This document shows positions 3 through 7,132 of a stretch of DNA of 64,000 nucleotides, piece by piece; positions within the stretch are counted from its first letter, which is position 1; each line of letters starts with the position of its first letter. The notes under the pieces are model-generated. The model saw only the letters and a program-made list of their open reading frames with translations, did no database searches and was not told the origin of the DNA. The position numbers were made by a program, and so were the translations under genes. The stretch is from Methanothermococcus sp. Ax23. GTDB taxonomy: Archaea > AGJL01 > Methanococci > Methanococcales > Methanococcaceae. The stretch is taken from the NCBI RefSeq assembly GCF_049075655.1, contig NZ_CP157522.1, forward strand, positions 1,598,949 through 1,662,948, in the 5' to 3' direction.

Positions 3-197
3 GTAAAGGAATCCCTAAGAAACGCTGGAGCGGATGAATCCCTCGTAGATGATGTAATAAAAAGAATTGAAAATAGAATTCATGATGAGCTCACCACAGC
101 AGAATTAAAGATGATGATTATAATGGTATTAAGAAGAATAAATAGTCAGCTACCAACGGATAAATCCGTTGGCTTGCCCTTCCAACTCCCTCAATAA
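3..197 (+). pseudogene. 3' part of an ATP-cone domain protein (5' end outside window), interrupted at 144/145 by an IS200/IS605-type mini-element; now ends in an element-derived tail
   Basis: Frame from base 3 reads VKESLRNAGADESLVDDVIKRIENRIHDELTTAELKMMIIMVLRRINS, an ATP-cone pattern. Removing 145-425 restores the in-frame ending ...RRINSEVAQQYTTNHS* (426-463). Confidence 0.7.
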
Positions 198-425
198 TAA
201 GGGCGGAGGACATTAGGCTGGCTGACAGGTCAGCCCTGCATTATTTTAATAATAAACCCTTTCTAACCGTACCCACTCTATTGAGTTTCGTGCCTTAGGG
301 TATGATTAATACTATTACATCTATATTATATAAATTTTTTTGGCATTCCTCCCATCTCGTAAGAGATTTTACAAAACATTGTTTTGTATAACGATTGAAA
401 TCGTGGGCTTCCTGCCTAATAATTC
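145..425 (-). mobile_element. Non-autonomous IS200/IS605-family mini-element (PATE/MITE-like), 281 bp, no ORF
   Basis: On the minus strand the right end is CAAG-ccaacggatttatccgttgg-tagcTGAC and the left end has GAAG-cccacgatttcaatcg..tggg, next to target TCAC (426-429). No target duplication; removal restores the host ORF. Confidence 0.85.
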
Positions 426-471
426 GTGAAGTAGCTCAGCAATATACTACAAACCATTCATAAATCTTATT

Positions 472-1473: not shown

Positions 1474-3450
1474 CTATCTTAATAATTCAATAATCTTTTC
1501 TTCAATCATTTCCTTAGGTTTATTTGTTATATTGGCAAGTCCATCTGCGAATATAACGGCATATTTCAAAACATATTTCTTTTTCTGCTCTTCTTCCTTT
1601 TCTTTTCTTATTCTTGATATATGTTTTTCAAGCCCTCTTGCACATATCATCAATGCCTGCCTTATTTCATTAAATATCTCTTCATTTTCCTCGCTACTGC
1701 ATGCCACTGCCTGCTTTCCAGCTGATGTATATGGAATATGAGTAGATATTAAATTTACAAACACCGTTAATGGAACATCTTCTTCGCTCCTAAGTCCATA
1801 TCTTCTCCAATTTACGCTTTTAACGGCATTTGTTATGCCACATCCCGATGTATCAAACAGTAATGGAACATGGTTTGCAAATCTCATTATCTCCATTTTT
1901 CTTGTATTATCCGATATTCTTCCTGCCTCTCCACCGTATGCCAGCCCTACCTCAACTGCGAATGGAATTCCTCCCTTATAGGTTTTTGGTCTCCTTGTAA
2001 GTGTCATTACAAATTCAGGATTAAGTGTTTTTAAAGATTCCTTTATATTTTCCTCGCCAATAGGTCTTAAACCAGCTGTGGATGGTGCCATGAAGTCCAT
2101 ATCTTGAATTACCCTAACAATCAACTCTGCATCATTCCAATCCATGTTTTTCGGATTCTTTTTTAGAAGATTCTTTATTTCATTTTTGAATCTTTCGAGC
2201 TCCTCATTTGATACCATTCCCATATCCACTAATGAATTTACAAATTCTTTTGGACTTTTGGTAATGTTTCTAAGTTTTCTCCTAAACTCATCCATTAACG
2301 AAGCATTTAAATAATTTTTCTCTGCAAATTCAATGAAATTTTCAGGTTTCTTTTTAAAGTGCTTTTTAATCTCTTTCAGCGTTTCTTCATCTAATTTGTC
2401 AAGTAAATAATCCATTATTAAATATTTTAAATAATACATTTTTAACTCGGATAAACTATCAGGAAGGGTATTTATTATGTCCTTAACCTCTGAAATTTCC
2501 TTTTTATCCACATATTTAGAGAATTTTTCAATATAATCGTTAATTTTTACATTTAAATAACAATCCACTACAATATCCCAAAATGTGCTGTCCCTGTAAT
2601 TTTCAAGTAGTTTATCCCTTAAAATATACTCTTGGAGCTCCTTTATTCTCTTGGATGTCATCCTTGATAACTCACTTGTGAGCATGCTTGAAATTTTTAT
2701 AGACTCAGTCCTTCTTGATATGTATAGGAGCTCATCTGGGGTCAAACCATAAGGATGGGGTTTCATTTCCTCAGGTCTTTCAGGAATATCTTCAACTGTC
2801 CTATCAAAAACTACGGTTTCCTCTGGGTCGATAAGGGTTATTTTAGCATGGGGTGTGGATAAGCTTATTCTTCTCAAATATTCAAAAGGTCCCTGCTCTC
2901 TTCTGTTGTATGTAACTTCTTTAAATTCTCCTTCAACTTTTGTCCCTCTCCAAAATCCTTCTCTTATTTCATGAGAAACAACATCTCCTTCGTTTTTTTC
3001 AATGCTCATCTTTATTTCCATTGTATGAATTTCCCCATCTCCTGTTGATGTGATGATTTTCAAAGGTTTTCCTGTTGTCACTTGTGCAAATAAAAGGACT
3101 CCCGCAGCACCAATACCCTGCTGACCTCTGGATTGAACAAGTCTGTGCATCTTTGAACCTGCAAGCATCTTACCAAAAACCTTTGGAACAAACTCAGGGG
3201 GAATTCCTGGACCGTTATCCTCAACAACAACTTTATAATGGTCTGCCCCAAGTTTTTTAATTTCTATGTTAATATCTGGTAAAATTTCCGCTTCTTCACA
3301 GGCATCCAATGAGTTTGTTACGAGCTCGTGAATTATGGTAGTCATACTTCTTAACTTACCACTGTATCCAAGCATGTGTCTGTTTTTTCTAAAAAACTCG
3401 GAAATTGAATGCTCTTTAAATTCATCAAATATGACATCGCTTTCAGCCAT
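1474..3450 (-). CDS. top6B: DNA topoisomerase VI subunit B
   Basis: GHKL motifs [23 protein letters not shown]; RFANHVPLL transducer domain; start MAESD preceded by ggtga RBS. Confidence 0.95.
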
Positions 3451-4053
3451 TTTTTTCACCGATAATAATATGATTAAAATAATAAAAACGTATAATAATA
3501 AGAAATTTTTCAATATATATTAATATTCAACATATATTTATTCAACCTATATTTAAATGATACTATAAAAATAGCAATTCTAAATATTCAAAATACATCC
3601 AATATTCATGTTATATAGATGGAATTAGCTTTTATAATTATATTATAATATCGTCAAATAATAAGTTGTCTAAATATTTATATAGATATTACTATTTTTC
3701 CCAATACTATTTTCTCAACGATTATTATTGGAAAAATGTGTATATAATATCATTACCAAAAATGTTTATTTATTTTAAAATATATTAAAATTACTAATAC
3801 TAATATTAAAAATTTGATTATAATATATTAATGTAGATAATATCATTATTAAATTTATAATTGGGTTTATATACTATAACAGTAAATGTATTTGCGAATA
3901 TTTATGAAAATTATTGAATGAATAATAATATTGTATATTTGGATATATTATTTTGATTTATTTAGACATTGCATTGGCAACTATTGTATGTTTATGTTAA
4001 AATTCGGTAATAGGTATTATAACTAATCCATACATAACAAGAGGCGATGATAT

Positions 4054-6796: not shown

Positions 6797-6813
6797 TATA
6801 TAATTATTGTTTT

Positions 6814-7132
6814 CTGACCTACTCCCACGACTGAAGTCGTGGGGTTCTTTTAGTAGGGTTTAACCCTACACGGGTGGCCAAGCCCACTACCCCTACCCTT
6901 TAAAGGGTTCAGGGCTACCTTATGCACTTCCAACCACTACCAGCGGTAGAGTTTTTACTAACCCTACCCATAGATACTTGGACTGGTAGCATTATTCACT
7001 ATGAAACTTCAAATATTTATGTTTTACTACTGACTAATTATAATGTCCGCCTCTCATCCAATTTCGTAAGAGATTTTACAAAACATAGTTTTGTATAACG
7101 ACTGAAGTCGTTGGCTTTCCCGGCGGTTTATC
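6814..7132 (-). mobile_element. Non-autonomous IS200/IS605-family mini-element, 319 bp, no ORF
   Basis: On the minus strand the right end is GAAC-cccacgacttcagtcgtggg-agtaggTCAG and the left end has AAAG-ccaacgacttcagtcg..ttgg, next to target TTAC (7133-7136). Confidence 0.85.

Follow-up and report, generated by a model that had tools for sequence, protein, structure and literature searches.

What interrupts a small ATP-cone gene beside ksgA in Methanothermococcus sp. Ax23, and what might the inserted DNA specify if not a protein? The question concerns positions 145-425 of a 64,000-nucleotide window (the whole stretch of DNA that was analysed; G000:C1:1598949-1662948, G000 being the genome under study), to which positions below refer unless a contig coordinate is given. 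A note made from the letters alone, called here the original prediction, had taken the segment for a mini-element of the IS200/IS605 group without an open reading frame (ORF). The analysis points to a non-autonomous, ORF-less IS200/IS605 (IS1341-type) palindrome-associated transposable element (PATE), which combines a former tnpB promoter, a private 5' RNA domain and an omegaRNA scaffold. That it supplies a guide RNA to a TnpB nuclease in trans is proposed as the probable reading.

The element and the interrupted gene occupy the following positions.

145-425, minus strand: the whole ORF-less IS200/IS605-type mini-element (PATE) of subtype A, 281 bp, delimited by an empty site in a relative (G003), a second copy and a parent element.
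3-197, plus strand: the interrupted ATP-cone gene in its present frame, which ends within the element as ...RRINSQLPTDKSVGLPFQLPQ and a stop.
428-463, plus strand: the displaced original 3' end of the ATP-cone gene, EVAQQYTTNHS and a stop, in frame in G003.

Excision of 145-425 in silico joins ...AGAAGAATAAATAGT to GAAGTAGCT... and yields a frame reading RRINSEVAQQYTTNHS followed by a stop. The new junction is ...AATAAATA joined to GTGAAGTAGC. The restored stop codon lies at 461-463 and the ksgA ORF, stop included, begins at 472, leaving a gap of 8 bp. This C-terminus, 8 bp from the ksgA stop, had been reconstructed in the original prediction and exists in G003, a genome of the same genus. There the site is uninterrupted: query positions 1-145 (96%) and 428-900 (91%) abut on contig C65, and the aligned site ...AGAAGAATAAACAGCGAAGTAGCTCAG... 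reads RRINSEVAQKYTANHS and a stop, with no duplicated bases. Because of this empty site, the insertion, its exact ends and the lack of a target duplication are observed directly. The present C-terminus as a native state of relatives, which would have spoken against an insertion, was not found; relatives carry the restored one. The element lies 3' of TTCAC, within the part of the gene that codes for its last helix. The host frame matches the ATP-cone profile weakly (17 bits, cut-off 25.8), and the insertion accounts for the truncated ATP-cone gene in the annotation. Only one ORF, of 31 aa, lies wholly inside 145-425; the 64-aa host frame runs in, and all overlapping ORFs are shorter than 65 aa. 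No similarity of the mini-element to TnpB was found.

With the 281 bp as blastn query, the genome yielded 41 matches, self included, 30 of which cover a 67-nt piece only. A second full-length copy is located at C1:77941-78219 (92.2% over 282 columns). In five shorter relatives the match covers positions 1-208 or 1-156 of the element and is broken up in two cases. A pair of matches separated by 1.2 kb (95.7% for positions 1-93, 100% for positions 198-276) represents the ends of a 1315-bp parent element at C1:372239-373553. The parent matches the window with 96% identity to 145-237 at the right end and 100% to 342-420 at the left end. The parent tnpB (C1:372403-373482) is intact and encodes 360 aa, scoring above the Pfam cut-offs for OrfB_IS605 (44.2 bits) and Cas12f1-like_TNB (91.9 bits). 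The solved structures that match it best are chains of Cas12f and TnpB; in alignment with these, the motifs GVDLG, IALEDL and NADVNAA as well as two CxxC pairs are retained. The gene is the sole member of its type in the genome: one of 21 tblastn segments is the gene itself, the others being 26-46% identical. A tnpA/tnpB or iscB parent had been anticipated in the original prediction, which could hardly have stood without a related tnpB element; it was found as an intact tnpB in the same genome.

The direction of the parent gene establishes the window minus strand as the top strand of the mini-element and the GC-rich side as its right end. This bears on an alternative raised in the original prediction, in which the segment, read on the plus strand, carries the 5' end of an IscB omegaRNA. 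A resemblance in sequence was its one argument. It was rejected, since the parent encodes TnpB and its strand makes the GC-rich end the 3' right end, downstream of the gene, while promoter and target motif lie on the minus strand. Rfam gave no match on either strand; no search was aimed at an iscB gene. The probability left to the IscB reading is close to nil.

Seven ORF-less copies were identified and assigned to two subtypes. Subtype A comprises the window copy and the copy at C1:77941, with a three-hairpin compound as left palindrome, like the parent. Subtype B comprises five copies of 239-473 bp with a simple hairpin at that place. The internal junction is identical in all seven, which argues that they spread as mini-elements and not by repeated deletion. 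Copies besides the one in the window lie mostly between ORFs. The second full copy, the five further ORF-less copies and a tnpB parent with the same ends show that the region is no chance look-alike. Among 40 examined genomes of the order, element DNA was found only in G000; two other matches are 52 nt and 32 nt long (E 2.8e-5 and 8e-4). Environmental assemblies contain tnpB genes with 92-100% identity to that of the parent (loci L059-L063, L070, L075, L076). In L061, L075 and L076 the insertion site is that of G000, and in L060, L062 and L063 other sites or a subtype-B left end are present, which indicates movement of full-length elements of this family within a natural population.

The ends of the element, read on its top strand, are composed as follows.

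426-430, minus strand: host target and predicted target-adjacent motif (TAM) TTCAC, with the left cleavage site TCAC directly 5' of the left end.
408-425, minus strand: left guide tetranucleotide GAAG (408-411) and a 14-nt linker (412-425) to the cleavage point.
351-407, minus strand: left subterminal palindrome, a three-hairpin compound within a 67-nt module (347-413).
173-176, minus strand: right guide tetranucleotide CAAG, directly 5' of the foot of the right palindrome.
153-172, minus strand: right subterminal palindrome ccaacggatttatccgttgg, with a UUUA loop.
145-150, minus strand: right-end terminus GCUGAC, containing the right cleavage site TGAC (145-148) and forming the 3' strand of a pseudoknot.

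In IS608 the left cleavage point precedes the palindrome foot by 19 nt, and the right one follows its foot at a distance of a few nt (PMC3201880). Each cleavage site is recognised by four bases 5' of the foot, site base 2 pairing with guide base 1 and site base 1 with guide base 2, while the third base is unpaired (PMC3201880). Here the left cleavage point lies 18 nt from the foot, versus 19 in IS608, and the right end runs in the order CAAG, palindrome, TAGC, TGAC. The pairing rule holds at both ends (TCAC/GAAG on the left, TGAC/CAAG on the right), in agreement with the guide and cleavage motifs originally assigned. It also holds in a second TnpB family of the genome (TTAC/AAAG, TCAG/GAAC) and in four Methanolobus/Methanosarcinaceae loci (TCAC/GATG, TGAC/CAAG), which represent the closest named relatives of the parent TnpB (60-62% identity). 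These Methanolobus relatives have a simple hairpin at the left palindrome and a TCAC target. Both ends of the element carry imperfect subterminal palindromes, which are not inverted repeats of each other. At the eight insertions (seven minis and the parent) the target TCAC is invariant, preceded by T in seven cases and by A in one (TTCAC 7/8, ATCAC 1/8). Judged by its sequence, this end architecture is the signature of Y1-TnpA transposition. The boundaries, orientation and target motif first proposed for the element agree with the empty site, the parent and the flanks of the copies.

The 67-nt three-hairpin module (347-413) occurs 33 times in the genome, and 30 of these copies belong to the second TnpB family. 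The parent, subtype A and all of the second family have it where a simple left palindrome would otherwise stand; a plain hairpin is found there in subtype B, in the Methanolobus relatives and in the metagenomic loci L062 and L063. The two TnpB families have different targets and their proteins are only 26-46% identical over aligned segments. The distribution of the module suggests an exchange between them.

The interior of the mini-element begins with a promoter, followed by a spacer and an RNA domain.

327-341, minus strand: archaeal promoter, with the TATA box TTTATATA (327-334) and a purine-rich run AAAAAAA (335-341) resembling a transcription factor B recognition element (BRE).
302-326, minus strand: fast-changing spacer of kept length, with 26 nt from the TATA box to CCCUAAGG in both subtypes.
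237-301, minus strand: AU-rich hairpin (237-255) and 46-nt GC-rich 5' domain (256-301), present only in ORF-less copies.

A minus-strand BRE/TATA had been placed at about 326-338 in the original prediction; the box at 327-341 is 80-93% conserved among copies (80-86% between subtypes A and B). The A-run and TTTATATA come after the left-end GGAATGCC, as they do ahead of tnpB in L063, a full-length relative from a metagenome. The mini promoter is homologous to the tnpB promoter of L063. In the parent this place is longer by 30 nt. The spacer is 36-40% identical between the subtypes and 36-68% across the copies compared. The 5' domain, which begins with CCCUAAGG, is 83-91% conserved between subtypes, the AU-rich hairpin 53-79% and the scaffold behind it 90-96%; a closing pair in the 237-301 region varies among A:U, G:U and G:C. 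Such a pattern is that expected of a promoter, a non-transcribed spacer and a constrained transcript. From the usual archaeal distance between TATA box and start, transcription would begin near 301-305.

The transcript would continue through the right end into the host DNA.

215-236, minus strand: hairpin 1, GGGCUG..CAGCCU, whose loop GUCAGC (221-226) is the 5' strand of the pseudoknot.
176-211, minus strand: stem 2, an outer GUCCU/AGGGC around the hairpin CCCU..AGGG; four of five outer pairs are changed on both sides, with all cells paired.
125-144, minus strand: predicted 20-nt guide UAUUUAUUCUUCUUAAUACC, which lies in host DNA on the 3' side of the right end and runs antisense to the ATP-cone ORF.

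The last approximately 92 nt of the mini-element (145-236) are common to the right end of the parent, and the tnpB stop codon lies inside the shared stretch. The motif ggctgac-ct-gtcagcc is found at 217-233. In an earlier consensus fold, in which six of seven rows bear on the structure (L046 was aligned to a left end), three of six pairs of hairpin 1 were changed on both sides. Right ends were then available from 6 loci of genomes and 37 of metagenomes. Alignment A3 (MAFFT) contains 16 sequences: the window copy, the parent, one subtype-B copy and 13 loci. Left out were L051 (right end as in L050), L059 (contig end), L061, L075 and L076 (right end as in the parent), L077 (extra insert), loci of at most 41% identity and fragments without a right end. 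The structure counted comprised stem 2, the right palindrome and the pseudoknot between the hairpin 1 loop and the terminal hexamer; hairpin 1 was excluded, its 5' arm being one column out of register between groups. Of the cells, 97.0% were paired, versus 74.0% in shuffles. The covariation score was 0.583 versus 0.170 in shuffles, reached by none of 500, and slid controls scored at most 0.151.

The pseudoknot joins the loop GUCAGC (221-226) with GCUGAC (145-150) in six pairs, which are 100% paired and two of which are changed on both sides. Four compensating forms were observed: GUCAGC/GCUGAC, GUCAAC/GUUGAC, GUCAAU/AUUGAC and GUCAUA/UAUGAC. In the right palindrome, 6 of 8 scored pairs are changed on both sides over the 16 sequences, and subtypes A and B differ there by two compensatory pairs. 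The window RNA (145-304, minus strand) folds with a z-score of -3.22, and 0 of 200 shuffles fold as well. The statements of the original prediction about the sequence itself were all confirmed, among them the approximately 155 nt of GC-rich structured sequence at this end. Hairpin 1, stem 2 and the pseudoknot lie outside the parts that the IS608 rule gives to TnpA, namely palindromes and guide/cleavage tetranucleotides, and occupy what we take to be the place of a TnpB guide-RNA scaffold. A pseudoknot is typical of TnpB omegaRNAs. The guide position 125-144 is predicted from the established layout of these RNAs; the guide first proposed, antisense to the host mRNA, agrees with the data. The first 16 nt of the predicted guide have one exact match in the genome, in their own flank. 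When the guides of all eight loci were searched at up to 2 mismatches, one exact site each was found besides many AT-rich near-matches, which are uninformative.

In the proposed mechanism, the internal promoter would give rise to an RNA of about 160 nt, which runs into the flank and would thereby gain a locus-specific guide. The single family-1 TnpB (C1:372403-373482) would load the mini RNA in trans. The loaded nuclease would cut an allele in which TTCAC is rejoined to the flank, whether excised or never occupied; the predicted cleavage target is TTCAC and TATTTATTCTTCTTAATACC. Repair from an occupied copy would restore the element.

What may be a transcript is seen in assembled contigs of environmental libraries. 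X1 and X2 derive from one sample and are labelled metatranscriptomic, with the flag 'RNA? (probably DNA)'. Their contigs over 145-191, 165-221, 200-331 and 145-331 have a depth of 1925-3931. Over 310-420 the depth is 29-44, over the 33-copy left-end module (350-409) 42-277, and over the host flanks 0. A 79-nt contig (depth 872) leaves the element at its right end and continues for 48 nt in a flank other than that of the window copy. DNA of a genome like this one would show the opposite depth ratio, because the module has 33 copies and the RNA part 7. We read the depth in X1 and X2 as RNA of a related environmental mini copy (5 substitutions, 2 indels), in runs flagged as probably DNA. The lack of any transcript had been named at the outset as an argument against the element; the RNA part was found deep in RNA-labelled libraries, which carry that flag.

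Such a transcript could also act alone. A TnpB-independent regulatory RNA, antisense to the 3' end of the ATP-cone mRNA, would resemble what has been proposed for VNG_R0052. PATE-derived RNA and sense overlapping transcripts (sotRNAs) are expressed in Halobacterium, where overexpression altered growth (PMC4615843). Conservation of the private 5' domain, which tnpB lacks, and the antisense position of the read-through part of the RNA relative to the host ORF are both as this explanation would have it. Against it, the conserved features are those common to tnpB right ends (relatives at 55-62% protein identity), including the pseudoknot beside the guide, and the seven copies lie in unrelated, mostly intergenic places with no common antisense target. 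A role apart from TnpB is accordingly held to be very improbable, and a guide for TnpB is preferred.

The transposase raises the strongest competitor. In the genome, which is 98.9% complete, PF01797 (Y1 TnpA) gave 0 matches with three candidates scored, and the second contig of 7.7 kb encodes a helicase-like protein and no HUH protein or Y1 TnpA. Matches to PF01797 occur in 6 of 40 genomes of the order, three of which (G015, G017 and G025) have intact frames. The transposase that placed the element is therefore gone or came from outside. Mobility would depend on such an outside or lost enzyme, as only TnpB is left to borrow. Of the original suggestion that the element borrows TnpA and TnpB in trans, the second half stands, a TnpB partner being present; for the first, the genome holds no TnpA. 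Two IS607-like pairs occur at C1:46898-48422 and C1:1510814-1512338, each with a serine recombinase (PF00239, 88-90 bits) and a TnpB-like segment; one recombinase copy carries an in-frame TAG. Elements of the IS607 type are not known to use hairpin ends, and these two tnpA genes were set aside as a transposase source.

The mini-element may then be an inert relic, a once-mobile PATE in decay; any RNA from it would then reflect a leaky promoter, without loading by TnpB and without a function. The genome without Y1 TnpA fits this, as do nested inserts in the scaffold of two sister copies and the 8% difference between the two subtype-A copies. A second, unrelated 314-bp insertion at the 5' end of the host gene would moreover make the locus a dumping ground. 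What argues for a constrained RNA is that scaffold and 5' domain are 83-96% conserved next to a spacer at 36-68%, that every pseudoknot and stem pair is intact in the window copy, that the parent tnpB is intact, and that the RNA part is very deep in RNA-labelled libraries. A relic is considered unlikely on balance, though likelier than the other rivals.

Several observations weigh against a functional guide RNA. Besides the missing Y1 TnpA, which leaves retention by cutting of donor joints with no excision to answer at present, the library evidence consists of contigs only, without strand, ends or level, and X1 and X2 share one sample. At 331, the contig of high depth ends inside the TATA box and some 25 nt upstream of the predicted start, which is at odds with that start unless low-level reads extend the contig. 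The RNA-seq runs X6 and X7 contained only the left-end module and the junction of the scaffold with a parent-type tnpB 3' end, at depth 6.3; no contig covers 238-331 there, which is uninformative on absence since only contigs were available. Two subtype-B copies carry nested inserts within stem 2 and the left palindrome, so copies do decay. The structure tested for covariation was drawn from the same sequences used for counting. No Rfam family matches the element: a search of 60-520 at E up to 10 returned nine chance-level hits (E at least 0.1), none related to omegaRNA, HgcC or IS605, and the whole window at the gathering threshold gave only a tRNA. The origin of the 5' domain was sought by blastx against the TnpB of four relatives and by blastn-short against the parent, and nothing below E of about 0.1 was found besides the shared ends. 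Because the domain has no counterpart in any tnpB, the shared scaffold of about 92 nt may fall short of what TnpB needs.

A more speculative idea takes the seven promoter-driven minis for free-standing guide genes that are no longer retention devices. They may have left that role, as nothing is excised without a Y1 transposase, and might act on incoming DNA of relatives without the insertion, as allele drive or exclusion during DNA exchange. This extension is offered with little confidence. If true, one TnpB would serve eight loci, each mini with a private 5' RNA domain; if the depth also reflects RNA, the minis would far out-express the parent. Such an arrangement would represent a naturally occurring halfway stage between the omegaRNAs of transposons and CRISPR-type guide arrays that act in trans.

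Further insertions were noted around the element. The ATP-cone gene carries another interruption behind codon five, where an unrelated element of about 314 bp is present (C1:1598580-1598893, just upstream of the window). This element has 10 genome copies of 88-99.7% identity. The gene start reads ATGGATGAAGTTTTGG in G003; in G000 this is followed by the approximately 314-bp element and then by GGCAAATGTG. Hit twice, the gene is probably inactive or restarts at an internal GTG. At the ksgA start (1242-1391), a 74-nt insert of two hairpins (1280-1353) is flanked by a perfect direct duplication of 38 bp (1242-1279 and 1354-1391). The duplication includes the start codon, and the first 11 codons of ksgA are thus present twice. 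Relatives of the 74-nt insert comprise about 20 pieces genome-wide, among them seven tandem copies with a 112-bp period at C1:869122-869845. The two subtype-B copies with nested inserts are those at C1:1457766-1458145 and C1:1587476-1587948. Their inserts, about 45-130 nt of short GC-clamped hairpins, are found at two positions common to both copies: in the left-palindrome loop and between GGAGUUGGA and AGGGCAAG of the RNA scaffold. They are like hairpin modules inside a second-family tnpB at about C1:1075450-1075510.

The second family also has ORF-less IS200/IS605 minis, one of which lies in the window at 6814-7131 on the minus strand (target TTAC, guide AAAG, right terminus TCAG). Thirty left-end modules of this family were counted in the genome: 8 adjoin a tnpB 5' end, 21 have a mini-type junction and one is of another kind. 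The right-end motif gave 40 matches at no more than 3 mismatches. The RNA part of the window copy (6801-6953) matches HgcC (RF00062) over the full length at 26.5 bits, below the gathering score of 50.

The locus represents an unusually legible natural case of a TnpB system whose three parts are separated: the guide RNA is a unit with a promoter of its own, a single-copy gene elsewhere encodes the nuclease, and a transposase is missing. The case supplies a defined, predicted TAM (TTCAC), a compact scaffold of about 92 nt whose pseudoknot is backed by covariation, and eight naturally occurring guides for a single small TnpB (360 aa), and may interest those who study or engineer TnpB. Together with the second family of about 21 mini copies, the element accounts for a class of GC-rich islands in an AT-rich genome. 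A G+C content of 32% and relatives from vent samples suggest that the host, a member of a methanogen order, is a thermophile.

Literature searches turned up neither an account of such elements from Methanocaldococcus nor one of archaeal TnpB guide elements that stand alone. ORF-less elements of the PATE kind are known from the IS200/IS605 group, and PATEs are stated often to encode omegaRNAs needing TnpB in trans (Meers et al., 2023, PMC10055086). The PATEs of Geobacillus stearothermophilus share with the present element the lack of an ORF, the IS200/IS605 left and right ends, and a TAM equal to the TnpA target motif (PMC10055086). Unlike them, the present element is archaeal, lies in an AT-rich genome of hyperthermophile type and has a BRE/TATA promoter; its private 5' RNA domain is absent from the parent, and a Y1 TnpA, present in G. 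stearothermophilus, is missing from its genome.

With IS608 of Helicobacter pylori (PMC3201880) the element has in common the subterminal palindromes, sites recognised by four bases 5' of the foot, a left cleavage 18 nt (IS608: 19) before the foot and a right one a few nt after it, and insertion 3' of a tetranucleotide without duplication. It differs in the target (TCAC, not TTAC), in the right terminus (TGAC, not TCAA), in the lack of tnpA or tnpB inside and in the compound left palindrome of three hairpins.

A PATE-derived RNA, VNG_R0052, is expressed in Halobacterium salinarum, and a link has been drawn between the right-end tetraloop and the M. jannaschii HgcC family (Gomes-Filho et al., 2015, PMC4615843). 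Like VNG_R0052, the present element is archaeal, fuses a left and a right end and has no transposase gene; VNG_R0052 is expressed as RNA, as the present element may be. A right-end hairpin with a UUCA/UUUA-type tetraloop is common to both and to the sotRNAs. Upstream of the sotRNAs of IS1341-type tnpB genes in H. salinarum no classical BRE-TATA was found, in contrast to the conserved one here. VNG_R0052 was described before the guide function of TnpB was known, and its sequence is unrelated. HgcC (RF00062), first found in Methanococcus jannaschii, resembles the element in being GC-rich in an AT-rich methanogen and in a tetraloop like that of the right end; the element (60-520, Rfam at E up to 10) gave no HgcC match and is not a member by the Rfam model. 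Minis of the second family match HgcC at full length below threshold (24.5-29.6 bits, gathering score 50), the best score genome-wide being 29.6 bits and all matches lying within second-family elements. As RNA-expressing PATEs and PATEs encoding omegaRNAs used in trans have already been published, the element is a new and well-resolved example of these systems and not a new principle.

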